NCBI GenBank assembly: GCA_043819555.1
Contig: JBDREQ010000025.1
Location: 64,001-128,000 of the forward strand
Direction: 5' to 3'
Source: Candidatus Zixiibacteriota bacterium
GTDB lineage: Bacteria; Zixibacteria; MSB-5A5; GN15; JAAZOE01
DNA length: 64,000 nucleotides
Under the pieces are notes generated by a model. It searched no databases. It was not told the DNA's origin and saw nothing but the letters and a program-made list of their open reading frames with translations. The translations under genes were made by a program, and so were the position numbers. Position 1 is the first letter of the stretch, and every line of letters begins with the position of its first letter. Shown here in pieces: positions 13,540 through 35,760 of the stretch.

Positions 13540-13585
13540 TCCAAATCTCAACTATTATTCTCTTCAGGTGTATAACATAAAGGTT

Positions 13586-13607: not shown

Positions 13608-13657
13608 ATTGTTGAACCTAATGTAATTGGCATTTTGGCATTGAGTGAGTGAAGGAA

Positions 13658-14781: not shown

Positions 14782-14813
14782 CCTTCTCGCGGCAAGTTTT
14801 TGCATAAATTTGA

Positions 14814-14845
14814 ATGGCCGATGCCAATTTCGGCCATTTTTTTTT
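14814..14845 (+). terminator. intrinsic terminator
   Basis: ATGGCCGA-N8-TCGGCCAT followed by a T-run. Confidence 0.75.
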
Positions 14846-14965
14846 GCTTCAGATTCAAAATAATCTTAACCCGTCGTCTTTTGTCTGTAAGTCATTGGTA
14901 GGCGGGGATAAAAATCTATTTAAGCTAATGACCTTTTCCGTTTTTTTGAGTTAATTTACGGCATT

Positions 14966-19148: not shown

Positions 19149-21372
19149 TTTTCGATTTCCCGCCATAATTGCCCTTACCGGAATCGTTGCCGGGACAATA
19201 CTGGGCAGGTATGCGGCATTAAATATGCCAGTGGTGACAGTCATTTTCATTGCCGCCTTGTTGCTTTTAATAATGACCTATTTTCGATTAGATACCCGTT
19301 ATTTTTCCGCTTCGTTGATTTTGTTTTTGTTGATCGGCTCTTATTTAATGGCGTCCCAGAAATATCAATATTTCGCCGCTGATGATGTCGGGCAATATGC
19401 GTCATCTTCAAGCTCTTTGAGATGTTTTGGCAAGATAGAAAAGTGGCCGGTTTTGAAGCAGCATAAGACTATTCTTACTTGCCGGGTCGACTCAATCATA
19501 GTTCAAGATTCAGTCCGGCCGGCATCCGGATCCATCCTGATAAACGTCCAAAGAGAAACGACTGAATTCATGCTGGGCGATGAAATCTCTTTTTCGGGAA
19601 GGTTATACATTCCGTCGGGAGGAAATTATCCGGGCCAATTTGATTATCGTGAATATTTGGAGAATAAGGGCATCAGGGCAGTTGTTTATATGTCAAATCC
19701 GGCTTTAATATTAAAGTTTGAAAAAGAAAGCAATATCTGGGGGAAGATAATATCATCACTCAGAAAATGGACGCTGGATTGTTTTCAATCTAACCTGACT
19801 GAAATACCCTATGCCCTGGCTTCGGGATTTTTAATAGGAGAGACCCGTGATATCCCGGAGGACATTTATCAGGCCTTTCGACGGACAGGGACTTTACATT
19901 TATTGGCCGTATCAGGCTCGAATGTCGCCCTGGTTTTAATTGTTTTTTCAGTATTTCTCAAGATATTCTCATTTAAAAAAATTACCAGGCTGTTAATACT
20001 TATATTGGTCATTGTCGTATTTTCACATCTATCCCACAATCAGCCATCCGTCATTCGCGCTTCGGTCATGGCTATCCTGATCATTCTTGCCAGGTTTTTG
20101 TACCGCCGGGCCAATCTCAACAATATTATCGCCGCCGCCGCATGTTTACTGATATTGTATGATCCTGCCAATTTATTTGATATCGGATTTCAATTGTCAT
20201 TTGCCGTTACATGGGGATTGATTTCCTTTCTGCCAAAGATAAATTCACTCCTGACCGGTAAGTCAATTCCTTCAGTTTATCGTTATTTATTATTGATAGC
20301 TTTGGGTTCGTTTATCGCGTCATTGGTATCGGCTCCGATAACTTTGTATTATTTCGGGGAAATGTCGCTGGTCACGGTGTTTTCCAATTTAGTGATTGTG
20401 CCGATGGTATCAGCCGCAGTCATCGGGATAATGATTCTTCTGGCGGTAAATTTAATTTTTCCACCGCTGACGCTTATCCCCGGCGTTTTTCTCGATCGCT
20501 TGCTAAGCCTTATCAATGATCTGGTTATCTGGTTTGGAAGTTGGGAGTTTTCATCAATAAGAACTGCTGAGGTCAGGGGCGAGTATTCTATCTTTGCGTT
20601 GGTGATTTTGACGATGTTATTTTTTGCAATTACTTCAAAAGCATTCCGCCGTTTATTGGTGTTTTCAATCCTGCTTGGGGGAATATGCTTTTTTGGTGAA
20701 GGACTTCTGGCGCGGGGAAAACCGATATCATCAATTGAAATTTATAATTGGGGAGCGGCCCAGAGTATTATTATCAATTCCTCAAATGCGGTGGCCATAT
20801 ATCATCAAAGCCGAGTGTCTCGATATGATGATTTTGGCTCTAATCTGATACCTTATTTAATCGATCGTGAGGAGTCGTTACCGGAAATATATATATTATT
20901 TGAACCCAAACATAGGACAATGCAAAGAATGGCGGAAGGAGCAGAATTCGGCCCTGAAATTGATTTATACCCGGTAAATGATTTCGATTTTTCCAATCCA
21001 TCAATCTGGACTAATACTGAAAAAAAACGGGTATTTGAAAACGAGACTTATAATGAGATTCAAATAGGCCACAATGTTGTCATCATTAATATACTCGATT
21101 CAATTGAAATAATAATTGCTAATTCACCGGTAGATTTTAACCGATTGCCCGAAAATATAATTGAACAGTGTAATTGGTATATAATTTTTGTAAATAGTGA
21201 CAAAAATCTGGCGGAATTAGCAGCTGTGAATGATATGGAAAAGGCAATAATTCTTCTTGAAAAACATAAAAATATTTACAAGATATTGCAGGATAATAAT
21301 TTTGATGAATTATATCCCGGACTGAATGACAAAATCACTTTACCGGGTTCAAATATTACGCTAATCCCCTGA
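19135..21372 (+). CDS. comEC: ComEC/Rec2 DNA uptake channel
   Basis: DUF4131 OB domain (NYPGQFDY), GTLHLLAVSGSNV, PSVIRA, GFQLSF; the C-terminal domain lacks a clear HxHxDH. Confidence 0.92.
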   Translation: MTAFSFRFPAIIALTGIVAGTILGRYAALNMPVVTVIFIAALLLLIMTYFRLDTRYFSASLILFLLIGSYLMASQKYQYFAADDVGQYASSSSSLRCFGKIEKWPVLKQHKTILTCRVDSIIVQDSVRPASGSILINVQRETTEFMLGDEISFSGRLYIPSGGNYPGQFDYREYLENKGIRAVVYMSNPALILKFEKESNIWGKIISSLRKWTLDCFQSNLTEIPYALASGFLIGETRDIPEDIYQAFRRTGTLHLLAVSGSNVALVLIVFSVFLKIFSFKKITRLLILILVIVVFSHLSHNQPSVIRASVMAILIILARFLYRRANLNNIIAAAACLLILYDPANLFDIGFQLSFAVTWGLISFLPKINSLLTGKSIPSVYRYLLLIALGSFIASLVSAPITLYYFGEMSLVTVFSNLVIVPMVSAAVIGIMILLAVNLIFPPLTLIPGVFLDRLLSLINDLVIWFGSWEFSSIRTAEVRGEYSIFALVILTMLFFAITSKAFRRLLVFSILLGGICFFGEGLLARGKPISSIEIYNWGAAQSIIINSSNAVAIYHQSRVSRYDDFGSNLIPYLIDREESLPEIYILFEPKHRTMQRMAEGAEFGPEIDLYPVNDFDFSNPSIWTNTEKKRVFENETYNEIQIGHNVVIINILDSIEIIIANSPVDFNRLPENIIEQCNWYIIFVNSDKNLAELAAVNDMEKAIILLEKHKNIYKILQDNNFDELYPGLNDKITLPGSNITLIP

Positions 21373-21518: not shown

Positions 21519-22730
21519 ATGGGACTATCAGGAAACCTAAAAACAGTATCGTTTTCCGATGTACTGCAATTGTTGTCAACAGGGAAGAAAACAGGCGTAC
21601 TTACAGTAGCAATGGGTGCGCGCAAAAAAGAAATCGCATTCTCTGGAGGCAATATTATAAGCGCCATCTCAGTGAACGCGAATGAGGATCTACTGGGAAA
21701 TTTGCTTTTAAAGCGTGGAAGAATCAATAAGAAAGATCTGGAGCGAGCAATTTCATTGCATAAATCTTCCGGCCGTGCTTTGGGAGCTACTCTTATTGAT
21801 ATGCAATTGTTTGACAAAGACGAAGTTTCCGAATGTTTGCGGATGCAAATCGAAGAAATTGTCTATAATCTTTTCAGCTGGGTCGATGGCGAATTTTCAT
21901 TCGCGGAAGGTGAATCTCCAAAGAACGCAACATTCCTGGTTAATTTGTCAACTATGAATATCATCATGGAAGGTACGCGGCGGATTGACGAATGGCTCGA
22001 AATACAAAAAGTTCTTCCGCCCAATGATATTTTATTGCGCGTCCGCTTGACTCCTAAAGTCAAAACAGAGGAAATAACGCTATCTCTTGATGAATTTAAA
22101 ATATTAACATTGATAAATGGAGAAAGAACCCTTCCGGAAATAATAGAGGTTTCTCCGGTGGGTGAATTTCCTACCTGCCGGGCATTGTATCGTCTCATTT
22201 TGGGTTCCCTGGTAGAAGGCGCCGGAAAAACCGCCAATGATAATATCGGACCGGATGAAGATGAAGAAGAAATAATCCTTGGCATTATTTTCAAACTATA
22301 CAACACCTGTTTTCTGAGGACGCGCAAAGTAATCGAGGAAGTCGTCGGGACGACTAATCCGGGGTATAGCAGGTTCATATCAAGTTTCAGGCAAGGGTTA
22401 TTGGTATTTTTCCCGGGATGTGATATGAGTACCGAGTCGGGACCGTCGCTTGAGAAATTTCTTCAGGAAGTTAAAAAAATTCCGGAAAAAGTCAGAATGC
22501 ATAGACTTCTCTCCATGTTAGAAGATATGTTGCACGAACAGCTTGAATATATATTTATGAATTTTGGATATGGAGCCTTTCGCACTGCGGTGGGAAAAGT
22601 CAAAAAAGAGATTTCCGAACCGCTGGCCATACGCCGTGAATTAGTAAAGAAATTCCGTCTTGATGATAATTTCTATTATTCCATCAAAAAGGCGGAGAGA
22701 ACTATAAAGATGATATCGGGTGACTCATGA
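21519..22730 (+). CDS. DUF4388 (PatA-N-like) domain protein with MshEN-like segment
   Basis: LSGNL...SFSDVLQLL...KTGVL, LFSWVDGEFSF, IMEGTRRIDEW; LLGNLLLKRG...ALGATL. Confidence 0.85.
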   Translation: MGLSGNLKTVSFSDVLQLLSTGKKTGVLTVAMGARKKEIAFSGGNIISAISVNANEDLLGNLLLKRGRINKKDLERAISLHKSSGRALGATLIDMQLFDKDEVSECLRMQIEEIVYNLFSWVDGEFSFAEGESPKNATFLVNLSTMNIIMEGTRRIDEWLEIQKVLPPNDILLRVRLTPKVKTEEITLSLDEFKILTLINGERTLPEIIEVSPVGEFPTCRALYRLILGSLVEGAGKTANDNIGPDEDEEEIILGIIFKLYNTCFLRTRKVIEEVVGTTNPGYSRFISSFRQGLLVFFPGCDMSTESGPSLEKFLQEVKKIPEKVRMHRLLSMLEDMLHEQLEYIFMNFGYGAFRTAVGKVKKEISEPLAIRRELVKKFRLDDNFYYSIKKAERTIKMISGDS

Positions 22731-23095
22731 AGAATAAACTTGGATTGATAGGGATATTTGTGTTTACGCTAATAATGGTCGAATCGGCTTATGCCGCCGA
22801 TTTTAAGGTTCTTGGAAATGTTCCAGCCATAATCAATCTAGTGATATTGATAGGCGCCTTAGCTTGCTTATCGGTAGCGATAAAACTATTTGGGTTAGTT
22901 AAGGGCGGAGCTCTGGCCAAAGGCTGTCAAATGTGGATAATCTCGTTTATAACGCTGACAGCCGGTCAGGTTTTAATCCTCGCTCAGGAACTCAAGTTGT
23001 TCATTTTGACTTTCGATATAGCCGGGATATTGTATGTCGGAACAGTGATACTATGGCTCATCGGTCTCATGCATGCCCGCCGCGTTTTGGGTTAA
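22727..23095 (+). CDS. small integral membrane protein, hypothetical
   Basis: Signal/TM plus 3 TM segments; ATGA overlap with the upstream gene. Confidence 0.75.
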   Translation: MKNKLGLIGIFVFTLIMVESAYAADFKVLGNVPAIINLVILIGALACLSVAIKLFGLVKGGALAKGCQMWIISFITLTAGQVLILAQELKLFILTFDIAGILYVGTVILWLIGLMHARRVLG

Positions 23096-23187
23096 GGTAA
23101 TTTTGTTTGACTCGAATGAAGCCATAGGCTATTATCGATTGGATATGCGCAAAACAGAGATACTAAAACTTTGGATGGATCATAATA

Positions 23188-24093
23188 ATGATTGATCGGT
23201 CAAGTATTGATGAACGGATCGCCAAATGCAGCAAAATACTGGATGAAAATCCTGGCTCGCAGATTTTTGCTGCTTTGGCTGAAGCTCTCCGCAAAAAGGG
23301 CGACCTTGATAAGGCCTTTCGCGTTTGCCAGAATGGTTTGAAAATCCACCCCGACTATGGTTCGGGCCACCTGGTGATGGCGAAAATCAACATGGATAAG
23401 GGGATGTATGATTGGGCCGAAATCGAAGCGATGAGAGCGGTCGAACTTGATGGCGAAACTCGAACAAATGAATTGCTTCTTTCTGAAATATATATTTATA
23501 AGAACGAGTTTAATAAAGCCTGCCGCCTCCTGGAAAAACTTCATGAGAGTGATCCGGGAAATGAGCAAATAAAAAAATTGCTCGAAATTGCCAGAAAAAT
23601 ACCCCTTGAACAGCATAATCAGCCAAACTCAGATTATAGTGCGCCGACTCCGCTGGTTGTCAATGCGGGCGTTTCACCGGCATCTCGGGAACGCGAACAT
23701 TCGGCTCCGGTGCAGACCATGACTCAGGAAGCCCCTCCGGTTAAATCTGATTTGAATTATAGGCAAATGTTAAGAACCCTGGTTATTACACCCGGGATTG
23801 AAGGGATATTATTAATAAATAATGACGGACTTGTGATTGAGTCCATTTGGAATGTATCGGGCGATACTGATTTGGTCGGAGCGCTGGCGGTTGAAACGGC
23901 GCGGTTTACGACTATTCAAATGCGAGAAGTAGGGTTTGGGCATTTGCAGTCGATGATGTTAGAAACACCCAAGTCATTATACTATATGGTCGGTATAAAA
24001 GGCAGGTTGCTAACAATGATATGCACTGAATCAATAAATCTCGGATCTCTTAAAATGAAATTGAGCGCTTTGCTTCCCAGACTGATGCCGTAA
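23188..24093 (+). CDS. TPR + Roadblock/LC7 fusion protein
   Basis: N-term TPRs (FAALAEALRKKG...GLKIHPDY); Pro-rich linker; C-term PGIEGILLINNDGLVI...INLGSLK. Confidence 0.8.
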   Translation: MIDRSSIDERIAKCSKILDENPGSQIFAALAEALRKKGDLDKAFRVCQNGLKIHPDYGSGHLVMAKINMDKGMYDWAEIEAMRAVELDGETRTNELLLSEIYIYKNEFNKACRLLEKLHESDPGNEQIKKLLEIARKIPLEQHNQPNSDYSAPTPLVVNAGVSPASREREHSAPVQTMTQEAPPVKSDLNYRQMLRTLVITPGIEGILLINNDGLVIESIWNVSGDTDLVGALAVETARFTTIQMREVGFGHLQSMMLETPKSLYYMVGIKGRLLTMICTESINLGSLKMKLSALLPRLMP

Positions 24094-24108
24094 CCAAAAG
24101 GATATAAT

Positions 24109-25080
24109 ATGGAGAAGAATATAAAAAATTTAATTCTGCTCGCATCGTTGATATTGGTTGTGATACCGATGGTAATTTTTCCCAATAAACTGGGATTGCC
24201 GTTATTGTCGGCATCGGTCTTATATTTGTTTTATGAAATGGCGTTCTACGGGATAGTACTTCATTTTTTCCGCAGGAATGTATCATTAATGACCATTTTG
24301 ATTGGCGCATCTTTAACAATGGTATTTCGCATTGGTTTGGGAGCCGCATTTGGCCTGGCCATTATAATTATGTACAGACTCGATAGCTCGGTTGCTTTTT
24401 CTCTTGGAATAGGCAAATATTTGCCGGCTATAATACTTCATGTGGTGGCAGCTCCTTATGTTTTGCGCCCGGCGTATTTGTATCTGGCATCAAGTTTAAC
24501 CCCGGAAAAAATGCCAAAGAAATTTGTCTTTGAACCCCATATAGAAGCAAAGGAAGTAATCTCCCCCGAAGTAAACGAATCTATTATGAAATTGCAGAAG
24601 AAGAATTTTAATGAAATAGATGCTGAAAAGCAGGCCTTTGAAGTTACATCGATTCCACATGGGGACGGCGATAATCAGCTGGAGCGGGCAGTACAATATA
24701 TTGGAGAATCAGCCGCGGTTAAAATGTCGCTTCTTATAGATGAAGAAGGTCTTACGCTCGCCAGATTTAGTCGTTGCGAAGAGGACATAGAATTGTGGGC
24801 TCCAGCCGCGATTGTCATTGAAAAAGAAAATCGAAGATTATTGAATCGTTTCAGTCCGATTGGAGAACCCAGTAAGCTGGATATAACGGCTCATGATAAG
24901 CGCATTATTTTGCGTCGGATAGAGAGATTGACTTTAATGATTATGGCAGAAGAGAATATTGACGAGACCATTCATATTAGAATGGCGCAGGCTGCGGATA
25001 TGATAAAAAAATATATCAATGCACGATACAGCCCGGCAATGTTTGCCAGGGTGGAGGAACAATATGTATCAAATTCTTGA
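24109..25080 (+). CDS. membrane protein (about 4 TM) + Roadblock/LC7-like domain
   Basis: Hydrophobic N-terminal 125 aa; C-term AVKMSLLIDEEGLTLA...LWAPAA... Confidence 0.7.
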   Translation: MEKNIKNLILLASLILVVIPMVIFPNKLGLPLLSASVLYLFYEMAFYGIVLHFFRRNVSLMTILIGASLTMVFRIGLGAAFGLAIIIMYRLDSSVAFSLGIGKYLPAIILHVVAAPYVLRPAYLYLASSLTPEKMPKKFVFEPHIEAKEVISPEVNESIMKLQKKNFNEIDAEKQAFEVTSIPHGDGDNQLERAVQYIGESAAVKMSLLIDEEGLTLARFSRCEEDIELWAPAAIVIEKENRRLLNRFSPIGEPSKLDITAHDKRIILRRIERLTLMIMAEENIDETIHIRMAQAADMIKKYINARYSPAMFARVEEQYVSNS

Positions 25081-25414
25081 GGGATTAAACAAGACGAGCG
25101 GAATAATCGGAAGTATGGTAGTTGGGAGCGATGGAATTGTGATCGCGGCCGATCTCAATACGCAGATTGAAGAAGACGCGATTGGCGCCCTGGCTGCATC
25201 GATTATTTCCAATGTACAGAAATCGCTCGATCGTCTTCAATCACCGCCACTGAAACAGGTTACGGTGGAAGCTGACAATGCCAAATTATTTTTCAGTGAG
25301 GTAGAAATGGGTGTTTTGGTAGTTATTACCGAACCGGAAGTTAATATTGGTTTAGTTCGGCTTGAAATCAAAAACGCGACAAGTAAATTAAACAATCAGG
25401 AAGCAGTTTGTTAA
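25064..25414 (+). CDS. Roadblock/LC7 domain protein (MglB/MglC-like)
   Basis: GIIGSMVVGSDGIVIAADL, IGALAA, VNIGLVRLEIK; SD GGAGG before ATG 25064; overlaps the upstream gene. Confidence 0.9.
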   Translation: MYQILEGLNKTSGIIGSMVVGSDGIVIAADLNTQIEEDAIGALAASIISNVQKSLDRLQSPPLKQVTVEADNAKLFFSEVEMGVLVVITEPEVNIGLVRLEIKNATSKLNNQEAVC

Positions 25415-25424
25415 GAGATAATAC

Positions 25425-26585
25425 ATGGTATCAATAAATTACGCATCGAAAGAGGTTAGTTGCAAAATCGTTTATTACGGCCCCGGGTTATCGGGTAAAA
25501 CGACCAATTTGCAATATGTCCATGCGAAGGTACCTTCCAATACGAAGGGTAAATTGATTTCGCTGGCTACAGACGCCGATCGGACCCTGTATTTCGATTT
25601 TCTGCCGATAAATATTGGGAAAATTAATGGTTTTGACGCCAAATTTCAGCTCTATACAGTTCCCGGACAGGTTTATTACAACGCCACGCGGAAACTTGTT
25701 TTACGGGGAGCAGATGGTGTTGTCTTTGTGGCCGATTCGCAACCGGATAAACGGGACGAAAATATTGAATCGCTTAATAATCTCAAGGAAAATCTGGCAG
25801 AGTATGATTTTAAGATCGAGGAGATGCCGTTTGTCATTCAATATAATAAGCAGGACCTGCCGGGAGTTTTTAGCGCCGAAGAGCTTCATGCCTTTCTTAA
25901 TACAGGCAATTGGCCGGAGTTTTGTGCTTCGGCGACAGAGGGCTTTGGCGTATTTGATACATTAAAGTGTATCTTGAAACTTGTTCTGGATAAGGCAAAA
26001 TCGGCAGGAAATGTTACAAAGCCCGCCCAATCTGCCTCAATTCAGACTGCACCTCGAGCTACTTTTCAAACGTCTCCTACTCCAATTCATCAGCCAGAAG
26101 TACCTCAGGTGTCACAACCAGCACCGTTTGCTCAACCAAGACCGGCACCGACTTCTATGGTCCCGGATCAGCCGGTACAGACGATACCACGGCCGGTCAC
26201 TCCGGCAGCATCCATGATTCAAGATACGAAACGCCCCTCAGAACAGGTTGCGCGGCCAAATTTGGAGTCGGATGAGCCTGTTGAACGACCAGCTGTATTT
26301 CAGCGCGAGCCGGTTGAGCAAAATAATGAAAAAGCCCCGTCATACGAAGCGAATTACCGGCCTTTTCCTGGTAATACCGCTGATGATGAAAAACGCATGC
26401 AATTTTCTCATCAAAAACAAAGCGTCAATTCACATATAACTAAAGCCGAAACTTACAATCCGAGCATCGGGGATGAAGATAAGAATCATTCTTCACATCC
26501 TCAAATGGCGCCATCGCTGCGCGCTGAATCGACCGAAAAGCCCAAAAAGCGGTCATTCTTTAAGCGCTTGTTTGGATTAAAATAA
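25425..26585 (+). CDS. mglA: MglA-family Ras-like GTPase with long C-terminal extension
   Basis: KIVYYGPGLSGKTTNL, DRTLYFDF, LYTVPGQ, NKQD, ASA; ~190 extra low-complexity residues. Confidence 0.95.
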   Translation: MVSINYASKEVSCKIVYYGPGLSGKTTNLQYVHAKVPSNTKGKLISLATDADRTLYFDFLPINIGKINGFDAKFQLYTVPGQVYYNATRKLVLRGADGVVFVADSQPDKRDENIESLNNLKENLAEYDFKIEEMPFVIQYNKQDLPGVFSAEELHAFLNTGNWPEFCASATEGFGVFDTLKCILKLVLDKAKSAGNVTKPAQSASIQTAPRATFQTSPTPIHQPEVPQVSQPAPFAQPRPAPTSMVPDQPVQTIPRPVTPAASMIQDTKRPSEQVARPNLESDEPVERPAVFQREPVEQNNEKAPSYEANYRPFPGNTADDEKRMQFSHQKQSVNSHITKAETYNPSIGDEDKNHSSHPQMAPSLRAESTEKPKKRSFFKRLFGLK

Positions 26586-26601
26586 AGGGGAGGAAATTCC
26601 C

Positions 26602-27090
26602 GTGAGTGATGATAGTCTGATATTATATGAGGAAGAGATCGAGCGGATTGATTCTTTATTGACCAAGTTATTAAAAGGAGCGGAAGCGAAATGCGCCCTA
26701 TTGGTTGATAAGGATGGCCATCTCATCACGCGCCAGGGTTTTACGCACTCCCTGGATACAACCGCGCTGGCGGCACTTCTGGCCGGCTCGTTCGCTTCAA
26801 CCAAAGAGATTGCCCGATTGGTTGGTGAATCAGAGTTCTCGGTCCTGTTTCATCAGGGCAAAAAAGACCATATCCACATGTCTATCGTGGGAGAACGTTC
26901 GATAATGGTTGTGATTTTTGATGATCGCACCACGATAGGAATGGTGCGCCTGTACGCCAAGGAAGCATCGGAAGAATTAGCCAAAGTGTTTGCGCAAATA
27001 ATGGATCGTCCTCAAGAGGATCATCCGGAAATGTCAGCCGATTTTGCAGCTTCGGCGGGCGATAAACTGGATGATATATTTAAGGATTGA
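26602..27090 (+). CDS. mglB: MglB GTPase-activating protein (Roadblock)
   Basis: LYEEE, LVDKDG.LI, DTTALAAL.AG, LVGE.EF..LFHQG, VVIFDDRTT.GMVRL, C-term LDDIF; colinear with Myxococcus MglB as recalled. Confidence 0.93.
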   Translation: MSDDSLILYEEEIERIDSLLTKLLKGAEAKCALLVDKDGHLITRQGFTHSLDTTALAALLAGSFASTKEIARLVGESEFSVLFHQGKKDHIHMSIVGERSIMVVIFDDRTTIGMVRLYAKEASEELAKVFAQIMDRPQEDHPEMSADFAASAGDKLDDIFKD

Positions 27091-27247
27091 CCCCGAGCAA
27101 AGAATTGATCGCGGCCGCCGCGGAAGGAAAGGCGCGGCATTGATATTTTATTTTAGAGCTTCGCCCCCTGGTTCCGCCCGCGTTCCGCGGATATAACACT
27201 GGGCACATCATACGGGAAAGTACTTATGCCATTATGGAGAGACATTA

Positions 27248-28945
27248 ATGTCCGCTGAATTAGGAACCATGCTGGTAAAGGCCGGCAAAATTTCCGAAGA
27301 TCAATTGGAAAAAGCGCTGGCCATGAAGGAGCAGAATAATGAATATTTTGGCGAAGCCCTCGTCAAAGTAGGAGCCATTGGCAGCGAAGAAGAGCTCTCC
27401 CATTTTATCAGCAAGCAACTGAATATGGGATCTTTGCGTCTTGCCGACGTAGAGTTAAATCCGGAAGTTGTCGCCCTGATTCCCAATGATATTGCCCGCA
27501 AATTTAATGTCATAGCCGTTTCAAAACTCAAGAAAATTCTTATTGTCGCGATTGCAGACCCTAATAATGTTTATGTTCTTGACGCTATAAAATTCATTAC
27601 CGGCTGTAATGTACAGCCGGTAATTTCTCCAGAAAACGCCATCACCAAGGCGATTGAAAAATATTATCGTTCAGATAGTGGGGTTAGCGCCATCCTCAAA
27701 GGTCTTGAAGACGAGGATGAACTTGAGGTTGTTTCTGTTTCCGACGAAGAGCTCAGCGAAATGGACTTGCAGTCGGCGGTTCAGGACAAACCATTGGTTC
27801 GCCTGGTCGATTCGATTATCAAAGAAGCCGTTCGCACCGGGGCCTCTGATATTCATATCGAAATGTACGAACGACGGATTCGCGTGCGCTATCGAGTCGA
27901 TGGCAACCTTAAAGAGATGGATCCTTTGCCGTTCAAATATCGGGCAGCAATTATATCTCGCATAAAAATCATGGCGGATCTGGATATTTCCGAACGGCGT
28001 TTACCTCAGGATGGGCGCATAAAAATTAAGCTCGACAATCGTACTGTTGACCTTCGTGTTTCCGTTTTGCCGACTATTTTTGGTGAGAAAGTGGTTATGC
28101 GAATTTTGGATTCGAATGCTTTAATGGTTGATATGACCAAACTCGGTTTTGCAAAGAACTCGCTGAAGCGATTCGATAACGCCATTCATTTGCCATATGG
28201 AATAATTCTGGTGACCGGGCCAACCGGTTCAGGTAAAACGACTACTCTTTATTCGGCTCTGAAGCAGATTAATACCGAGGGTATAAACATAATGACTGCC
28301 GAAGATCCGGTTGAGTTTAACTTTGACGGGATCAACCAGATCGCTGTCAAGTCGGACATCGGTTTGACATTTGCCAAAGCATTGAGGTCTTTTTTGCGGC
28401 AGGACCCCGACGTGATAATGGTCGGTGAGATTCGAGATAGTGAAACAGCGGAAATAGCCATCCGAGCGGCATTAACCGGGCACTTAGTTTTCTCGACTCT
28501 GCATACCAATGACGCTCCCTCATCGATAAACCGGCTAATTGATATGGGTATTCCCAACTACCTGGTATCTTCAGCAACGCGGTTGATTATGGCTCAGCGT
28601 ATGACGAGGAAAATTTGTATCAATTGCAAGAGGGGTTATACTCTCACCGATGAAGATATACAAAACCTTGACGTTCCCGAACACCTTATCACAACCCGGG
28701 ATATTTTTGAATCTCCCGGCTGCAATGATTGTAACGGAACCGGCCAATCGGGCCGTACCGGTATATATGAAGTTATGCCGGTTTCAGAGGTGATTGAAGA
28801 CTTGATTTTAAGAAGAGCAACTGATATTGAAATTCGCAATAAGGCAGTTGAAGAGGGGATGCTGACATTGCGCATGGCCGCCGTTGATAAGCTAATGAGC
28901 GGCTTAATCAGTCTCAAAGAAGTCTTTGCCGTAACTGGTACTTAG
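27248..28945 (+). CDS. pilB: type IV pilus extension ATPase PilB
   Basis: MshEN-like N-terminus, ASDIHIE, RLPQDG, GPTGSGKTTT, EDPVE, LRQDPD, STLHTN, Zn CxxC pairs. Confidence 0.95.
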   Translation: MSAELGTMLVKAGKISEDQLEKALAMKEQNNEYFGEALVKVGAIGSEEELSHFISKQLNMGSLRLADVELNPEVVALIPNDIARKFNVIAVSKLKKILIVAIADPNNVYVLDAIKFITGCNVQPVISPENAITKAIEKYYRSDSGVSAILKGLEDEDELEVVSVSDEELSEMDLQSAVQDKPLVRLVDSIIKEAVRTGASDIHIEMYERRIRVRYRVDGNLKEMDPLPFKYRAAIISRIKIMADLDISERRLPQDGRIKIKLDNRTVDLRVSVLPTIFGEKVVMRILDSNALMVDMTKLGFAKNSLKRFDNAIHLPYGIILVTGPTGSGKTTTLYSALKQINTEGINIMTAEDPVEFNFDGINQIAVKSDIGLTFAKALRSFLRQDPDVIMVGEIRDSETAEIAIRAALTGHLVFSTLHTNDAPSSINRLIDMGIPNYLVSSATRLIMAQRMTRKICINCKRGYTLTDEDIQNLDVPEHLITTRDIFESPGCNDCNGTGQSGRTGIYEVMPVSEVIEDLILRRATDIEIRNKAVEEGMLTLRMAAVDKLMSGLISLKEVFAVTGT

Positions 28946-29081
28946 AACGCGAAATTTCTTCCAAACACCAACAAGTAATAATTGGAAATGGGGAATAGCC
29001 AATAAATTTGCCATATTGGCTCATTTGTTCAACTTGTTTAATCGCAATAACTTATTATTGGCGTTTTAAGTCGGTGTCACT

Positions 29082-29108
29082 TAAGATTTTCAATACATTT
29101 ACCGATAC
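29082..29108 (+). promoter_or_regulatory. sigma28 (FliA/SigD)-like promoter upstream of pilT
   Basis: TAAG-N15-ACCGATAC versus consensus TAAA-N15-GCCGATAA. Confidence 0.45.
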
Positions 29109-29172
29109 AATTAATGATACGATAGAGGCGCAATTCCGCTGAATATATAGTCGCTTTACTTTAGGAGATAAC

Positions 29173-30249
29173 ATGGTAACGTTGAGGGATCTTCTCCAGG
29201 AAATGGTCAAGATGGGGGCCTCCGATTTACATCTTACGGTTGGTATTCCACCCATGGTAAGAGTGGATGGAAATTTAGTACGAATGGAGCACGAGGTTTT
29301 AACCGCTGAAATGACATTGAAGCTGGCTTACAGCATCATGAATGAAAAACAGCGGAAGAAATTTGAAGAAAACAATGAACTGGACTTGTCGTTTGGCCTT
29401 GAGAATTTGAGCCGATTTCGCTGTAATGTATTTCGTCAGCGCGGTAATATTGCCGTCGCATTGCGGCAAATTCCCTTTAAGATAAAAACTTTTGAAGAAC
29501 TGGGATTGCCGAAAGTTGTTTCCGATATGGCCAATTTACCACGTGGCCTGGTTCTTGTTACCGGTCCGACCGGTTCAGGAAAATCGACTACTCTGGCCGC
29601 AATGATTGATAAAATCAATCGCGAGCGGCATGAGCATATTTTAACTGTTGAAGATCCGATTGAGTATTTACACCGACACAATAATTGTCTGGTAAATCAA
29701 AGAGAAGTTTTCAGCGATACGCCGTCATTTGGTTCGGCTCTAAAATACGCGTTGCGTGAGGATCCTGATGTAGTCCTGGTCGGTGAGATGAGAGATTTGG
29801 AAACAATTGAAGCGGCATTAAATATTTCAGAAACCGGCCACCTTGCCTTCGCGACGCTGCATACTAACTCGGCCGCCGAATCGATTAACCGCATCATCGA
29901 TGTATTTCCGACCAATCAGCAGGAGCAGATACGAGTTACCTTATCTTTCACATTGCAGTCGGTTATCGCCCAGCAATTAGTTCCGCGCATGGGCGGCGGA
30001 CGAGTATTGGCGATGGAAGTGATGGTTTGTACACCCGCCATTCGCGCGATAATTAGGGATGATAAGATACATCAAATATATAGTATGATTCAGTCAGGAC
30101 AGAAATACGGGATGCGAACGATGAATATGTCTCTGGGCGAATTATACCGTACTGGAAAAATAACCCTGAATGACGCGACAGGGCGCAGTTCCAATCCGCA
30201 GGAATTGACAGAGCTATTATCGAAACAGCCATCGCCCGCATTTGCATAA
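29173..30249 (+). CDS. pilT: type IV pilus retraction ATPase PilT
   Basis: ASDLHL, GPTGSGKSTT, EDPIE, LREDPD, ETGHL..TLHT, AIRAIIR (AIRNLIRE-type motif). Confidence 0.96.
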   Translation: MVTLRDLLQEMVKMGASDLHLTVGIPPMVRVDGNLVRMEHEVLTAEMTLKLAYSIMNEKQRKKFEENNELDLSFGLENLSRFRCNVFRQRGNIAVALRQIPFKIKTFEELGLPKVVSDMANLPRGLVLVTGPTGSGKSTTLAAMIDKINRERHEHILTVEDPIEYLHRHNNCLVNQREVFSDTPSFGSALKYALREDPDVVLVGEMRDLETIEAALNISETGHLAFATLHTNSAAESINRIIDVFPTNQQEQIRVTLSFTLQSVIAQQLVPRMGGGRVLAMEVMVCTPAIRAIIRDDKIHQIYSMIQSGQKYGMRTMNMSLGELYRTGKITLNDATGRSSNPQELTELLSKQPSPAFA

Positions 30250-30261
30250 GGAGTAAATGGT

Positions 30262-31458
30262 ATGCCGGAATTTGAATATAAAGGTAAGACCCTGGCCGGG
30301 GTTCAAGTCAGCGGTACGTTAAAGGCCAAAAATCAGCAGGATATGGAAAGAATTCTCAGGCAGAATAGGATCCTGGTTTCCAATATTCGCAAAAAACCGA
30401 CTGATATCGCGATTAAATTCGGTACCGGAATAAAAAAGCAGTCCATTTCCCGCTTCACTCGACAATTTGCGACCATGATCGGCGCTGGTCTGCCAATGAT
30501 ACAATGCCTGGAGATTTTGGCTTCTCAGGTTGAATCGGTTGAGCTGCGCAAAGTTCTATACAAAGTCAAGGAATCAGTCCAGGGTGGTACGACTTTGGCC
30601 GACGCGTTGGCCCGCCATCCTAAAGTTTTTGACCAGCTTTATACTAACATGGTTGAGGCCGGCGAGATGGGTGGCGCTCTTGACGTAATTCTTGTTCGGT
30701 TGGCGGTTTATCGTGAAAAAGCCGACGCCCTGGTGCGCAAGGTTCGCGGGGCGATGATGTATCCGATTGTAATCAGCGTCGTGGCTACCGGCGTTACAAT
30801 TGCCATGTTAACTTTCGTAGTGCCTGTGTTTGCCAAAATGTTTGAAGGCCTTGGATCGGAATTGCCCGGACCTACTCTGGTCATTTTGGGAATATCGAAT
30901 TTTCTGGGATCAAAATTCATGTATATCATAGGCGCCATAATCGGTCTAATTGTTAGCTATAGGCTTTACGTCAAAACGCCCAAAGGCCGTTATAATGCCG
31001 ATAAGTTTTTTCTGGCGTTTCCGGTTTTGGGAACGCTTCTCAAGAAATCCGCGATTTCAAGGTTCGCACGTACCCTGGGAACCTTGCTCTCATCGGGTGT
31101 TTCGATTCTGGAAGCCCTTGATATTACCGCTAAAACGGCCGGTAACAGGGTTATTCATGATGCTATCAAAAAATCAGTGATATCCATTGCCGAAGGTGAT
31201 ACAATTACCGCCCCGTTGAAGGAAACCGGTGTTTTCCCTCCGATGGTAACGCAGATGATCTCGGTCGGTGAAAAAACCGGCGGATTGGATGAGATGCTCA
31301 ATAAGATAGCAGATTTTTATGATGAAGAAGTTGATGCCGCGGTAACGGCCCTGACATCGATTATTGAACCGGTGGTTATTGTATTTATGGGTGTGATAAT
31401 TGGTGGTATTTTGATTGCGATGTATTTACCTATGTTTGATATAATAGGAAAAATCTAA
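30262..31458 (+). CDS. pilC: type IV pilus platform protein PilC (GspF family)
   Basis: FTRQFATMIGAG, AGEMGG.LD, AMMYP, VGEKTG.LD.ML.KIADFY, MYLPMF. Confidence 0.96.
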   Translation: MPEFEYKGKTLAGVQVSGTLKAKNQQDMERILRQNRILVSNIRKKPTDIAIKFGTGIKKQSISRFTRQFATMIGAGLPMIQCLEILASQVESVELRKVLYKVKESVQGGTTLADALARHPKVFDQLYTNMVEAGEMGGALDVILVRLAVYREKADALVRKVRGAMMYPIVISVVATGVTIAMLTFVVPVFAKMFEGLGSELPGPTLVILGISNFLGSKFMYIIGAIIGLIVSYRLYVKTPKGRYNADKFFLAFPVLGTLLKKSAISRFARTLGTLLSSGVSILEALDITAKTAGNRVIHDAIKKSVISIAEGDTITAPLKETGVFPPMVTQMISVGEKTGGLDEMLNKIADFYDEEVDAAVTALTSIIEPVVIVFMGVIIGGILIAMYLPMFDIIGKI

Positions 31459-31466
31459 GCGGGTTA

Positions 31467-31495
31467 GGCGGGCCGGCCGGCCCGCCTTTTTTTTG
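31467..31495 (+). terminator. strong intrinsic terminator abutting the pilS start
   Basis: AGGCGGGCCG-GC-CGGCCCGCCT followed by a T-run. Confidence 0.8.
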
Positions 31496-31496
31496 C

Positions 31497-33218
31497 ATGA
31501 GGTTGTCACAGGCATATCCGGGAATAAATGCAGGCTGGTTTGCGCCTCTTCGGCTGATGAATTTTTGCCTTATATTTTGGGGGATTGTCGGCTGGCTCGG
31601 GCTTCCCACGTATACACAAACTTCATTCTATTTATATTGCATTGCCACTCTGGCAGCTTTAATTTCGCTGGTATTTTTGCGCCGCACCGATTTTCGATTA
31701 CTATTTCGAGTATTGATTGCGCTGACTTTTGTCACTGAAATAGTCAATGAGGCTGGCATAGTTTATTCGACAGGGAGTCTTTATTCGCCGTTTTCGATCC
31801 TATTTTTACTGACAATTGTTTCATCGGCCATAGTTTATCGGCTGGCAGGAACACTGTTAATTGCCACCTGCGCCAGTTTTGCTTATGCGTTTGTGGCCTG
31901 GATAAATACAAATCTTCCAGTTCAGGAAAACCTGTTCTCACAGCCATTAGGTGGGAGTTTTCTAAACGCCGATGATGCCCATTTTTATTCGACCTTTTTA
32001 CACATCCTGATTTTCTATCTGATAGCCTTTATTGCCGGGTATCTCGCGGAAAAACTGCAATCCAAGAATATCGAACTCGATTCGGCCTCGGCGGCTCTTA
32101 AAAAAGCCAAACTGGAAACCGGAGATATTCTCTGGCATTTGAACTGCGGATTGGTAACGATTGATCAGAGCGGTGATATCGTGTACTTTAACCGAACCGC
32201 TGAATCAATATTGGGATTGAATGAGGCGGAAGTTTCGGGCAAACCTTGTTTTGATATTTTCGTCAATCAATTGAAACCTATGGCCGAAAATCTGATGGGG
32301 GTTCTGAATTCCGAACAACGATTATCGCGTTCTGAATTTGTTATAAAAAGAGGCGATGGAACGGAGATACCAATTGGATTGTCAACATCGACTCTTTATG
32401 ATGAACAATTTGATACTCGCGGAGTGATTGCCATTTTTCAGGATTTGACGGAAGCGAAAATGTTCGAACGAAGAATCGGGCAGGCGGATAAAATGGCCGC
32501 TATTGGCGAGTTATCGGCATGCATAGCGCATGAGATTAGAAATCCTTTGGCCTCGATTTCAGGTTCAGTAGAGGTTCTCAGAGATTCTATGTATCTTGAG
32601 GGCGATAATGAAAAATTGTTATCGCTAATTATCAAGGAATCAGCCCGGCTGAACAAAATCCTGTCTGATTTTCTTCTGTACGCCCGTATAAATCGCCTGG
32701 AAATGCGAAAGGTAGAAATTCTCGGACTTATATCGGAAGTGATTGAAGTAGCCCGTCGGCATCCATCGTACAATAAAAATATACTTATTCAGCCCATAGC
32801 AAATGAAAATGTTATTTATATTTCAGGGGATGAAGATTATTTAAAGCAGATGCTTATTAATCTTTTGGTAAATGCGTTTGAGGCTATAGGTGATCGCGAT
32901 GGGAGCGTTCAGATTGAATCGGATGCCGGATTGAATGACGGCGAAGTAAAATTGACTATAAGAGATACCGGACCAGGCATTCCCTTTGAGCAACTCGGGA
33001 AAGTTTTTATGCCATTTCATTCAACAAAAAAATCCGGCTCAGGCCTTGGATTATCAATCGTCTCGCGCCTGTCAGACGCAATGGAGGGCCGGGTAGAGGT
33101 TTCATCCGAGCCAGGATTGGGCACAGAGTTTTGCTTATATCTGAAAAAGTTCAATCAAGCGTATCCAAAATTGGAAATGAATAATCAAGTACAGTCATCA
33201 ATTCCACAATTGCCGTAA
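31497..33218 (+). CDS. pilS: PilS-like pilin-sensing histidine kinase
   Basis: About 6 TM (TGSLYSPFSILF), PAS, AHEIRNPLASISG, HATPase; follows pilC. Confidence 0.85.
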   Translation: MRLSQAYPGINAGWFAPLRLMNFCLIFWGIVGWLGLPTYTQTSFYLYCIATLAALISLVFLRRTDFRLLFRVLIALTFVTEIVNEAGIVYSTGSLYSPFSILFLLTIVSSAIVYRLAGTLLIATCASFAYAFVAWINTNLPVQENLFSQPLGGSFLNADDAHFYSTFLHILIFYLIAFIAGYLAEKLQSKNIELDSASAALKKAKLETGDILWHLNCGLVTIDQSGDIVYFNRTAESILGLNEAEVSGKPCFDIFVNQLKPMAENLMGVLNSEQRLSRSEFVIKRGDGTEIPIGLSTSTLYDEQFDTRGVIAIFQDLTEAKMFERRIGQADKMAAIGELSACIAHEIRNPLASISGSVEVLRDSMYLEGDNEKLLSLIIKESARLNKILSDFLLYARINRLEMRKVEILGLISEVIEVARRHPSYNKNILIQPIANENVIYISGDEDYLKQMLINLLVNAFEAIGDRDGSVQIESDAGLNDGEVKLTIRDTGPGIPFEQLGKVFMPFHSTKKSGSGLGLSIVSRLSDAMEGRVEVSSEPGLGTEFCLYLKKFNQAYPKLEMNNQVQSSIPQLP

Positions 33219-33327
33219 GTTCGTCTGAGGCATTCCCAAAAAATGAAAATAAATCTCGAGGAACTTTTGCTTGATTTTTGAGTGTAATATCTTAATTTGA
33301 ACCCTAAATTCAACAGAGGTGACCTTT

Positions 33328-35100
33328 ATGAAAAAAGCAGCGCTAATTTTGGCTTTATGTGTAACAGCCTTAATTATTGTTGGGTGTCAAGGCGGCAAAA
33401 AAGCTGACATATTAAGTGAGAAATTTCCGGTCGACGAATTGCGCCCTTTAGTATTTGCGGAAAGTGATTTTCTTACCATTGATATTGATATGTTGGCTCA
33501 GAAATTCAATGATGATCAGGTGCCCATATCGAAAACAAAAATCGATTCTATTACGGCTTTAGAAACTGTTTATAATATGTACCTGGATTCACTCCTGGCC
33601 GTTGATGCCGCTAATTTTGATTTATCAACAACGCCATTACTGGAAAAACAGTACAAAACAATGTACGATGATTTTCTGGTGCGTTTTTTATATGATTATC
33701 ATATCGTCGCGAATGTCGTCGTTGATGATTCGCTGGTTTATGAAACATACGAGTTGATGAAAGATAAATTTATCAGTCCTGAGAAATACCGCGCCCGCCA
33801 TATCGTTATATCGGGATATAATCTCAAAACGGGTGAGGATTCACTGAAATATAAGGGTAAATCGAATGCCGAACTGGATGCCATTGCAAGGGATTTAGTT
33901 TCAGAATTGAGGCAAAGAGCTCTTAACGGCGAGGGATTTGATACCCTGGCGATAATGTATTCGTATGATGACAGGAGTTCCAAGAGTGGAGGCGATCTTG
34001 GATATTTTGAACTATCCAAAATGGTCGCGCCATTTGATTCCGCGGTTCAGAATACTCCGGTAGATTCAATATCGGGCTTAATAAAAACGAAATATGGATG
34101 GCATGTAATAAAGGTGGAGGATCATTCGGAAGAACATTACACGCCAATCGATTCATTGTATGATGGAATATTAAAATATTTAAAACAACAGCAAGCCGGC
34201 ATTAACGGGCAGGCGTTTTTGGATACTCTTAAAGCCAACGCGAATATTTATTTCGATACGGCCGCAATCGCTCTGGACGACACGCTGCATGAAATGACCG
34301 ACGCTTTAGCCATTGTTAATACGGATGGATCGGCTAATCGCGTTGATACATTGACATACAAGGAATACCGCGCCCAAATAGGTCTCTATCTGAAAAGAAA
34401 TGGTCTGGCATATCCCCCAAGTGTCCCTGAAAAGATTGAAGCCATTCGTGAATTTGCCCTGAAATACGAGATTATTCGTTATGCAATTGAAAATGGTTAC
34501 GCCGATCATCCTGAATTCCGAGAATGGTCGGATGGGACGATACTTAAATACGGGGTGGCTACTCTTAAAAAAGATTTATTGGAGGACGGATACGAACCGA
34601 CTGAGGAGGAACTTTTAGCCTATTATAACGATAATATTGAGAAATACCGGGCCGAAAAACCGTTAAAAGTACAGCATATCATTTTTGCTGATTCAAGTTT
34701 GGCTATCCATGTTCGCGATGTTGCCAATTCTGGCGCAGATTTTATGGAACTGGTCGATCAATACTATCCGGGTGACCCGGAAATCAAACAGGCCGCGGCT
34801 AATCTCGGATATATCGGTGAAAAAGATATGCCCGGCGCTTTCTGGAGGCGGGCTTTATCAACGAAGGTCGGCGAAGTGTCGCGTCCGGTAAAAACAGAAT
34901 ATGGATATCATATTATTAAGGTTTTGGAAAAATCTCCGGACAAGGAATTTGCGGCGGTAAAATCGGGAATTAGAAAAACGATGCAGGATAATTATAAGCA
35001 TGATAAAATCTGGGAATTTGTCGAACGCCGGCTGGGCGGTGCGCCGAAAATTTACTGGGATAGACTTGGTGATTTGTATCGCAAACCGATAGAGCCATAA
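33328..35100 (+). CDS. lipoprotein peptidyl-prolyl isomerase with two parvulin (PpiC) domains
   Basis: Lipobox LIIVGC; ARHIVI, GGDLGYF, TKYGWHVIKV, TEYGYHIIKV. Confidence 0.88.
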   Translation: MKKAALILALCVTALIIVGCQGGKKADILSEKFPVDELRPLVFAESDFLTIDIDMLAQKFNDDQVPISKTKIDSITALETVYNMYLDSLLAVDAANFDLSTTPLLEKQYKTMYDDFLVRFLYDYHIVANVVVDDSLVYETYELMKDKFISPEKYRARHIVISGYNLKTGEDSLKYKGKSNAELDAIARDLVSELRQRALNGEGFDTLAIMYSYDDRSSKSGGDLGYFELSKMVAPFDSAVQNTPVDSISGLIKTKYGWHVIKVEDHSEEHYTPIDSLYDGILKYLKQQQAGINGQAFLDTLKANANIYFDTAAIALDDTLHEMTDALAIVNTDGSANRVDTLTYKEYRAQIGLYLKRNGLAYPPSVPEKIEAIREFALKYEIIRYAIENGYADHPEFREWSDGTILKYGVATLKKDLLEDGYEPTEEELLAYYNDNIEKYRAEKPLKVQHIIFADSSLAIHVRDVANSGADFMELVDQYYPGDPEIKQAAANLGYIGEKDMPGAFWRRALSTKVGEVSRPVKTEYGYHIIKVLEKSPDKEFAAVKSGIRKTMQDNYKHDKIWEFVERRLGGAPKIYWDRLGDLYRKPIEP

Positions 35101-35127: not shown

Positions 35128-35760
35128 ATGTATGAGGCAGAGGAAATTTCGCTGGGAGCGGAATTTATCCGCAAGGGTATCCATCTTTTTGCGCTCGTAA
35201 TTCCCGTTGGTTATGCTTTGGTTACTTTTCAGACTGCAGTCTTCTGGGTGAGTCTGTCCGCGGCAGTCGCGATATTTATTGATATCTCGAGATTCAGAGA
35301 TTGGAAAGTCTGGAAATACCTGTCAATAGTATTAATGCCGATTATTCGCGATCACGAGGTCAAGGGAGGCTTTACCGGTGCCAGCTATATTTTAACGACG
35401 GCATTAATCTGTATTATTTTTTTCCCCAAGCCGATCGCCATTGCGGCCCTTGTTTTTATAATAATCGGCGATACCGCCGCCGCTCTGGTCGGGCGCAAGT
35501 ATGGAAAACATAAACTTTGCAGGAAGAAATCGATTGAAGGTTCGCTAGCCTGCCTGGCATCACTGGCGGTGGTTTCATTCTTAATACCGGGATTACCGAC
35601 ACCAATTGGCCTTGTCGGGGCTTTAACCGCAACTTTAGCCGAAGCATTTTGCGGCAGACTGGATGATAATTTGTTTGTTCCGATAAGTTCCGGTTTGGTA
35701 ATGCTTGGAATTATGTATTTACTGGATTATCCTGAAGCGTTTTTTTTCTCGGCCTTTTGA
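35128..35760 (+). CDS. SEC59/DGK1/VTE5 family CTP-dependent polyprenol/diacylglycerol kinase
   Basis: RKGIHL, GDTAAALVGRKYG, KKSIEGS, DDNL.VP. Confidence 0.85.
   Translation: MYEAEEISLGAEFIRKGIHLFALVIPVGYALVTFQTAVFWVSLSAAVAIFIDISRFRDWKVWKYLSIVLMPIIRDHEVKGGFTGASYILTTALICIIFFPKPIAIAALVFIIIGDTAAALVGRKYGKHKLCRKKSIEGSLACLASLAVVSFLIPGLPTPIGLVGALTATLAEAFCGRLDDNLFVPISSGLVMLGIMYLLDYPEAFFFSAF

Follow-up and report, generated by a model that had tools for sequence, protein, structure and literature searches.

A conserved block of MglA, MglB, and accessory Roadblock genes adjoining the type IV pilus motor genes of Zixibacteria

The DNA analyzed here, a 64-kb window of contig JBDREQ010000025.1 from a Candidatus Zixiibacteriota bacterium (assembly GCA_043819555.1; the window is the whole stretch, and all positions refer to it), carries a block of seven genes, termed g1 to g7, encoding a small GTPase of the MglA type, its predicted GTPase-activating protein (GAP) MglB, and a set of Roadblock, tetratricopeptide repeat (TPR), PATAN, and membrane proteins. 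The block spans positions 21519–27090, and its seven plus-strand genes lie between comEC and the pilus genes pilB-pilT-pilC-pilS. Intergenic spacing within the block is -17 to +92 nt: the start of g2 overlaps the stop of g1 by 4 nt, the start of g5 overlaps the stop of g4 by 17 nt, and mglB starts 16 nt 3' of mglA. An earlier note, made from the nucleotide sequence without database searches, had described seven co-oriented and tightly packed genes in this setting; the open reading frames (ORFs) and family matches agree with that gene list, except that alignment puts the start of the free Roadblock gene at 25064 and not at the ATG farther upstream (25019). The block is a real feature and strongly conserved; its parts and immediate neighbors are as follows.

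19135–21372, + strand: comEC, competence channel (Pfam Competence 183 bits, DUF4131 88 bits); upstream context, outside the tight block
21519–22730, + strand: g1, PATAN/DUF4388 protein of 403 aa (DUF4388 113.1 bits, cut-off 25)
22727–23095, + strand: g2, small membrane protein of 122 aa (~4 hydrophobic segments by hydropathy)
23188–24093, + strand: g3, TPR-Roadblock fusion of 301 aa (TPR_2 38.4 bits; Robl_LC7 25.4 bits, cut-off 23)
24109–25080, + strand: g4, polytopic membrane anchor with a C-terminal Roadblock, as predicted by AlphaFold2 (AF2) model and Foldseek
25064–25414, + strand: g5, free Roadblock of 116 aa (Robl_LC7 43.6 bits, cut-off 23)
25425–26585, + strand: g6, mglA, 386 aa (Arf 33 bits)
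25425–26012, + strand: g6 part 1, MglA G domain, aa 1–196 (phmmer against Myxococcus xanthus MglA 6h17)
26013–26543, + strand: g6 part 2, low-complexity tail rich in P/Q/A/S/E, aa 197–373 (continuous ORF)
26544–26585, + strand: g6 part 3, polybasic-hydrophobic C-terminal end KKRSFFKRLFGLK and stop codon (comparable end in 36/36 sequences)
26602–27090, + strand: g7, MglB of 162 aa, Roadblock with a C-terminal helix (Robl_LC7 50.9 bits; phmmer against 6izw)
27248–28945, + strand: pilB, type IVa pilus extension ATPase (TIGR02538 687.7 bits, cut-off 675.65)
29173–30249, + strand: pilT, retraction ATPase (TIGR01420 507 bits, cut-off 319)
30262–31458, + strand: pilC, inner-membrane platform (T2SSF 219.7 bits, two stretches)
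31466–31487, + strand: terminator-like hairpin between pilC and pilS (9-bp stem with 8 G-C pairs, then T7), from a consensus scan only
31497–33218, + strand: pilS-like sensor histidine kinase (Pfam 6TM_PilS, PAS, HisKA, HATPase)

Conservation of the block was assessed by mapping the window proteins onto 35 loci from other Zixibacteria genomes, representing 18 of 20 families. The g1, g3, g5, mglA, mglB, and pilB genes appear in window order at all 35 loci, and because this order is identical throughout, the g1–g7 arrangement is not a product of chance. The gap between g1 and g3 is filled at every locus by a g2-like ORF of 86–160 aa with 2–4 hydrophobic segments, and g4 is found by tblastn at 33/35, its end overlapping the start of g5 by 8–26 nt at 31 of those 33. 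Of 285 genomes searched in the phylum, 277 have a match to a profile built for g4, as do 195 of the 198 of high quality; the misses include all 3 genomes of one family. The conserved neighborhood that had been proposed as a check on the cluster thus exists, and so does its physical joining to pilB-pilT-pilC: pilB lies directly 3' of mglB at all 35 loci, with a gap of 5–204 nt at 33 of them and of 5–20 nt at 6, and pilT and pilC are each present at 34/35 and pilS at 33/35. A comEC match lies upstream of the block at 32/35. Beyond pilS, a double PpiC-type rotamase gene (window 33319–35100) follows at 20/20 loci within the order to which the source genome belongs and at 0/15 outside it. Two public metagenome-assembled genome (MAG) records labelled Calditrichota (L059, L060) also hold a complete Zixibacteria-type block, with g1 58% and g5 67–72% identical to the window proteins; for these records, either the assigned taxonomy or the limit drawn for the phylum deserves another look.

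At the center of the block are the GTPase and its partner. Residues 3–196 of g6 align with M. xanthus MglA (6h17/5ymx; phmmer E 4.5e-76), and the P-loop, the intrinsic arginine finger segment DRTLYFDFLP, the TVPGQ switch II, and the NKQD motif are all aligned, which identifies the G domain, at the level of sequence, as a canonical group-1 MglA of the Myxococcus/Thermus type. Residues 5–161 of g7 match M. xanthus MglB 6izw over its full length (phmmer E 1.5e-40), and g7 is by this homology a canonical MglB and the predicted GAP of MglA; its score against the NCBIfam Thermus-type MglB model NF052242 is 99 bits, below the cut-off of 200. The source genome (3.35 Mb, 97% complete) encodes a single MglA, and its three Pfam-detectable Roadblock domains (g3, g5, g7) all fall within the locus.

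The name MglA, as given in the earlier note, holds for the G domain; the note had overlooked that the protein, at 386 aa, is about twice the length of the solved MglA chains (195–203 aa) and well beyond a single-domain size of ~195–200 aa, that it carries a long tail, and that the tail has a conserved end. The tail (~180 aa) varies freely in sequence and length, and its reading frame is open in the window and at 35/35 loci, giving total lengths of 299–480 aa. At its end, a basic-hydrophobic (basic-aromatic) segment is present in 36/36 sequences, the last 20 residues having a net charge of +3 or more in 35 of them, and this segment is a candidate amphipathic membrane anchor. Among at least 8000 candidates scored in a search for tail-bearing long MglA proteins outside the phylum, the few named sources among the best 120 were Zixibacteria or simply 'bacterium', and literature searches on MglA with an amphipathic helix, a C-terminal extension, or membrane targeting gave nothing relevant among the matches listed. 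A P-x-M-A-P-S-L-K/R motif, located ~20 residues before the basic end (window 26450–26585; L014–L033), persists in all four families of the order amid an otherwise freely varying tail, and may be a docking peptide.

Besides MglB, the locus holds three further Roadblock domains, in g3, g4, and g5, and the total of four matches the count proposed earlier; those of g3, g5, and g7 are identified by Pfam and that of g4 by its AF2 model and Foldseek. Two of these domains also have the predicted attachments, one to TPR repeats and one to a polytopic membrane anchor. In g3, the TPR repeats (aa ~10–135), whose core is invariant in the alignment, are joined through a linker to the Roadblock (aa ~190–295). 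For g4, no Pfam or NCBIfam match was found, and an alignment of 20 homologs displays conservation at both ends, in a hydrophobic N-terminal part and in a C-terminal domain of ~135 aa, with a variable linker between them. The AF2 model correspondingly places helices at aa 5–130, a disordered region at aa 134–187, and a Roadblock-type domain at aa 190–306 with a-b-b-a-b-b-b-a topology and predicted local distance difference test (pLDDT) values of 77–90. Foldseek retrieves M. xanthus MglB 6hjm as the best match to this domain (E 2.5e-8, TM-score on target 0.85), followed by Ragulator p14/MP1 and Asgard Roadblocks, with 155 matches at E 0.001 or better. Because profile comparisons are weak (hhalign of g4 against g5 gives E 9.4e-5 and a moderate probability of 59%, and against MglB an uninformative 2%), the Roadblock fold of g4 is established by the model and Foldseek; the JGI annotation likewise labels g4 homologs 'Roadblock/LC7/MglB family'. 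Flags of '1 TGA' in many rows of the g4 profile search were considered as possible recoding and dismissed, since the profile runs beyond the g4 stop (checked at L017 and L021). The small protein g2 has no Pfam or NCBIfam match and belongs to no known family. The free Roadblock g5 is highly conserved (mean column identity of 70% over 34 genomes), and its profile finds the Asgard Roadblock 7yh1 as its best PDB match (E 2.8e-12), with MglB at ~0.02 and MglC 7ct3 at E 0.83. In a library of 1.84 billion representatives, the same profile matches 2263 clusters down to a threshold of E 0.001, with 329 of them at E 1e-10 or better, and it also returned many proteins of 800–1190 aa with a C-terminal Roadblock match.

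The pairing of unlike Roadblock domains, which had been proposed for structure prediction, gains support from a complex model and from the overlapping genes. When the g4 Roadblock domain and g5 were modeled together with a 34-row alignment for each partner, the complex scored 0.79 (runs of 0.80, 0.78, and 0.79) against 0.04 for the best control; for comparison, 116 of 157 solved complexes pass the score mark applied, as do 2 of 215 mismatched pairs. The predicted interface comprises 86 contacts, to which each chain contributes its helix 2 and strand 3 at the usual Roadblock dimer face, with partner pLDDT values of at least 85 and agreement among the three runs in at least 97% of contacts.

The first gene of the block encodes a PATAN/DUF4388 protein of composite architecture. 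Its AF2 model (pLDDT 81) suggests a PATAN core, a helical GSPII/MshEN-like insertion (aa ~56–116), a winged-helix-like domain (aa ~170–238), and a helical bundle (aa ~249–400). Searched as a whole against the PDB, the model returned nothing at E 0.001 or better (Foldseek), and neither Foldseek nor VIA found a solved relative of the PATAN core or the C-terminal bundle. The insertion superposes on the c-di-GMP-binding N-domain of MshE, 5htl_B (VIA Z 6.7, root-mean-square deviation 2.4, 59 residues, 30% identity), as well as on PilF GSPII domains, and the winged-helix-like domain has VIA matches at Z 5–7.6; domain-level matches at Z 5–8 are middling by the tool's own rating. The protein also passes the NCBIfam c-di-GMP_motif model NF053729 (40.3 bits, cut-off 38). 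Set beside the published c-di-GMP motif of MshEN domains (PMC5013675), both arginines at position 1 are replaced in g1, by Leu in the first half and Ala in the second, the second half carries Gln in place of its turn Gly, and the first half carries His in place of its final Gln; the N-terminus of PilB likewise lacks the motif arginines. No receiver domain is present in g1, the Pfam scan yielding no Response_reg match, which sets it apart from the PATAN-REC composition of PatA-type regulators. The genome encodes three PATAN/DUF4388 proteins in all, the two others lying on contigs C3 (136990–137463) and C20 (55293–55604) in open frames of 283 and 733 aa.

Immediately 3' of the block, after a gap of 157 nt in the window, PilB, PilT, and PilC form what by family assignment is a type IVa pilus motor set, with PilC scoring 501 bits against the NCBIfam model NF052606, below its cut-off of 700. 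On the 5' side, comEC is set off from g1 by 146 nt in the window and by up to ~1 kb at other loci. A promoter scan gave 26 sites against 30.2 in shuffles, and thus no excess. In one groundwater RNA library, five short contigs match the locus at 99% identity or more, at g1, g4, and mglB and, in two cases, across the g1/g2 and mglA/mglB junctions; these come from a single run with a small share of words (0.09), so that uncovered parts carry no meaning, and they amount to a weak hint of expression.

A related module exists in a second phylum. When one Armatimonadota match to the g5 profile was used as a query, six loci were recovered, two from Armatimonadota, one from an uncultured source, two labelled Calditrichota, and one from Zixibacteria, of which the last four carry the full Zixibacteria-type block. 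The two Armatimonadota loci (L056, L057) encode a TPR-Roadblock, a Roadblock-like protein with two transmembrane (TM) helices, a g5-like Roadblock (g5 profile E 2e-37 to 2e-39), MglA, MglB, and a PATAN protein. At L057 these genes share a single orientation: a TPR-Roadblock of 300 aa, a membrane protein of 1053 aa, a two-helix Roadblock-like protein of 237 aa (g4 profile E 4e-7), the g5-like Roadblock (E 2e-39), an MglA of 199 aa, MglB, and a 230-aa PATAN protein, followed by pilM, pilN, pilO, and a secretin gene. L056 and L057 are an independent linkage of a related module to pilus genes. They differ from the Zixibacteria block in several respects: the MglA, 59% identical, lacks a tail; the PATAN protein has neither the helical insertion nor the C-terminal bundle; the neighbors are pilM-pilN-pilO-secretin instead of pilB-pilT-pilC; the large membrane protein is extra; and the module is patchy in the phylum, a TPR-Roadblock at E 1e-15 or better being found in 10 of 201 Armatimonadota genomes. 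The 1053-aa protein itself (L057 4041–7202), lying inside the MglA/Roadblock cluster, has 4–5 N-terminal hydrophobic helices and no Pfam match. In eight of nine further Armatimonadota loci, a triad of TPR-Roadblock, Roadblock, and MglB occurs with no MglA within ~9 kb, and the TPR-Roadblock and Roadblock genes often overlap; the ninth locus (L070) has a TPR gene in which no Roadblock part was detected.

A tree of 84 Roadblock domains, drawn from the window, 12 of the 35 Zixibacteria loci (the other 23 were left out), two free g4 forms, and 10 Armatimonadota loci, unites the MglB proteins of both phyla in one clade (100/99), joins g5 with the L056/L057 Roadblock (96/84), and sets g4 apart as a separate clade (97/99); the deep branching among the four Roadblock classes was not recovered.

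Several of the links among these components have precedents. In Synechocystis, the PATAN domain alone is reported to bind PilB1 at its N-terminus and PilC at its N-terminal domain and to localize to the membrane, and a conserved role of PATAN at pilus machines is raised there as a question (10.1101/2021.06.11.447907). MglA and MglB genes are described as occasionally lying near PATAN genes (PMC4316618, citing Makarova et al. 2006), so that PATAN-PilB/PilC binding and PATAN-MglA/MglB gene linkage are both already published, and supplementary table S2 of that paper lists MglA neighborhoods, among which related contexts may already be found. In Myxococcus, the TPR protein SgmX is reported to bind MglA-GTP and bring PilB to the pole (PMC7519303), MglC to be a Roadblock paralog that binds MglB and RomR (PMC4719450), and RomY to modulate MglB/MglA (PMC9481161). 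In the library searched, no literature was found that combines Zixibacteria with MglA, in keeping with the earlier description of the block as undescribed. Taken as a whole, that note's reading is partly supported: the Roadblocks, the membrane anchor, the conservation, and the pil linkage stand, and the published PATAN links and the Armatimonadota module had been overlooked.

The closest known counterpart is the M. xanthus polarity module (MglA, MglB, MglC, RomR/RomX, RomY, SgmX), with which the Zixibacteria block shares homologous MglA and MglB, an accessory Roadblock, a TPR protein, and a predicted output to the pilus motor. The Zixibacteria system differs in that mglA precedes mglB, in that it forms a single block joined to pilB-pilT-pilC, in having three extra Roadblock domains instead of one (one of them membrane-embedded, another fused to TPR), in its tailed MglA with an anchor-like end, and in including PATAN and a small membrane protein. 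With the cyanobacterial PATAN-REC regulators PixE, PixG, and LsiR, g1 shares a PATAN/DUF4388 domain bearing a helical insertion, but it has a winged-helix-like domain and a helical bundle and no receiver, and its input is likely the GTPase/Roadblock module rather than a chemosensory kinase. The Ragulator-Rag (LAMTOR) system resembles the block in having several Roadblocks beside a small GTPase and a membrane attachment, and p14/MP1 is among the best fold matches to g4. This is an analogy of layout only, since the GTPase here is of the MglA type without a Roadblock of its own and the attachment is by way of a polytopic helix bundle instead of a lipidated LAMTOR1. The actinobacterial conservon (CvnA-CvnB-CvnC-CvnD) is likewise an operon of an MglA-family GTPase, a Roadblock, and a membrane component, but the Pfam matches of g1–g7 include neither a CvnA-type kinase nor CvnC (DUF742), and the GTPase is of the Myxococcus type.

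The account that we consider the more probable one, with some reserve, is that g1–g7 encode a complete small-GTPase polarity and activation switch, laid out as one probable operon ahead of the pilus motor genes that it most likely controls. The system is a variant of the known MglA/MglB polarity system, and the mechanism that we infer from its parts and their linkage would run as follows. MglA would cycle between GTP and GDP forms, with an MglB dimer acting as the GAP as it does in Myxococcus and Thermus, and its C-terminal end would tether it, by way of the flexible tail, to the inner membrane, much like the linker and anchor of Ras and Rho. The membrane Roadblock g4 would pair with the free Roadblock g5 (or g3 with g5), and g4:g5 together with g3 and g2 would form a membrane platform to position or modulate MglB/MglA, the part played in Myxococcus by MglC and RomY. 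Output to the motor would pass through the PATAN domain of g1, acting on PilB/PilC, with the TPR domain of g3 as perhaps a second output and counterpart of the TPR effector SgmX; the switch would in this way set where and when PilB or PilT engages PilC. In Myxococcus, sgmX (MXAN_5766) and mglC (MXAN_5770) are four locus tags apart, and this proximity offers a lead, and only a lead, that the TPR-Roadblock fusion may join two such partners. A broader proposal, which we put forward tentatively and with some doubt, is that, at the base of the pilus, Zixibacteria may operate a G-protein machine that is membrane-bound and self-contained. Its parts would be an MglA whose linker and anchor parallel the Ras/Rho hypervariable region, three accessory Roadblocks that together with MglB make up a Ragulator-like platform, and a receiver-less PATAN and a TPR arm signaling directly to PilB/PilC. 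The triad would then represent an old and widespread core of small-GTPase regulation that has become dispersed in Myxococcus (SgmX, MglC, MglB).

A number of observations weigh against this account of a membrane-based switch for the pilus motor. At two loci, each from a different family, the g4-type Roadblock (136–169 aa) has no membrane part. Eight Armatimonadota loci show the free Roadblock gene coupled in translation to the TPR-Roadblock gene instead, with no membrane Roadblock present, which favors g3:g5 as the ancestral pair; the g4:g5 model, for its part, may owe its pass to Roadblock dimer structures memorized by the predictor, and it does not separate g4:g5 from g3:g5, g3:g4, or homodimers. 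The g5 protein is no closer to MglC than to Roadblocks generally in the profile comparison with the PDB, and its identification as an MglC-specific relative was rejected. The hydrophobic moment of the MglA end (0.22–0.93) is not above that of the rest of the tail. The end may resemble the amphipathic membrane-targeting helices of MinD and FtsA, and a search of the genome for MinD gave none over the cut-off. An MshEN-type c-di-GMP receptor role for g1 has the fold and the hidden Markov model match on its side, but the motif residues are replaced at key positions, and c-di-GMP input via g1 is rejected for now because those residues are missing. No response-regulator gene adjoins pilS in the window, nor is a pilR adjacent; pilMNOPQ lie on another contig of the genome; the RNA contigs show neither strand, level, nor a single transcript and may reflect DNA carry-over; and the source organism is uncultured.

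The position of comEC raises the question of whether the module instead controls a DNA-uptake pilus, with MglA and the Roadblocks gating extension and retraction of the pilus that feeds ComEC. The gene lies upstream both in the window and at nearly all of the Zixibacteria loci, and retraction powered by PilT is used in both DNA uptake and twitching. We nevertheless hold a competence role to be unlikely: the spacers that separate comEC from g1 set it off from the block, no comEC match was found in the two Armatimonadota loci searched (the Pfam scan of genes covering L057 only), and MglA is tied to polarity or pilus placement in every species studied, as described in PMC7519303 and PMC4316618. 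Competence and polarity roles are moreover not mutually exclusive. Less probable still is that the pil adjacency is inherited synteny of no functional meaning and that the module steers gliding, division-site choice, or secretion. Myxococcus gliding is also reported to be under MglA (PMC4316618), the mglB-pilB gap in the window is 157 nt, and the order from comEC to ppiC is frozen across the whole order, which indicates that synteny is conservative in this lineage. Yet the pil linkage extends through the whole phylum where the ppiC neighbor does not persist beyond the order, mglB and pilB come within 5–20 nt of each other in several families, the related Armatimonadota module adjoins a different set of pilus genes (pilMNOPQ), and a link between PATAN and the pilus motor is reported from experiment (10.1101/2021.06.11.447907).

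A further possibility, to which we give somewhat more weight than to a competence role while still doubting it, concerns the extra Roadblocks, which might never touch MglA and act instead as MglC-like adaptors for MglB or other partners, or as a separate membrane sensor, with the triad as the functional unit and g4 as a lineage-specific addition. The triads that lack a nearby MglA in Armatimonadota fit such an arrangement, as does the report that Myxococcus MglC binds MglB and RomR, not MglA (PMC4719450). At every Zixibacteria locus, however, the genes lie beside mglA, and g5 shows no specific MglC likeness; an absence of MglA contact would in any case refine the GTPase-switch explanation and is not a true alternative to it.

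Understood as such a GTPase switch, the block would bear on a question that Myxococcus has answered in part, as the route from MglA to the pilus motor is partly understood there and its parts are scattered over the chromosome. A conserved block beside PilB, PilT, and PilC offers a short parts list, namely a GTPase, its GAP, Roadblocks, a TPR arm, a PATAN adaptor, and membrane anchors, and the natural fusions (TPR-Roadblock, membrane-Roadblock, MglA-anchor) predict working partners. The anchored MglA suggests that flexible-tail membrane tethering of a small GTPase arose in bacteria too, and the recurrence of the triad in another phylum is a hint of a shared core of regulation that is absent from the view afforded by model organisms.

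The remainder of the 64-kb window consists of housekeeping genes. ORFs of 865, 168, 362, 282, and 210 aa at 10192–12789 (- strand), 13033–15814 (+ strand), and 35128–35760 (+ strand) have no Pfam match at E 1e-5 or 0.01. At 2556–4175 on the minus strand lies a gene for an FG-GAP repeat protein with a Por_Secre_tail, a sorting domain of type IX secretion, and an FlgD-Ig-like domain.

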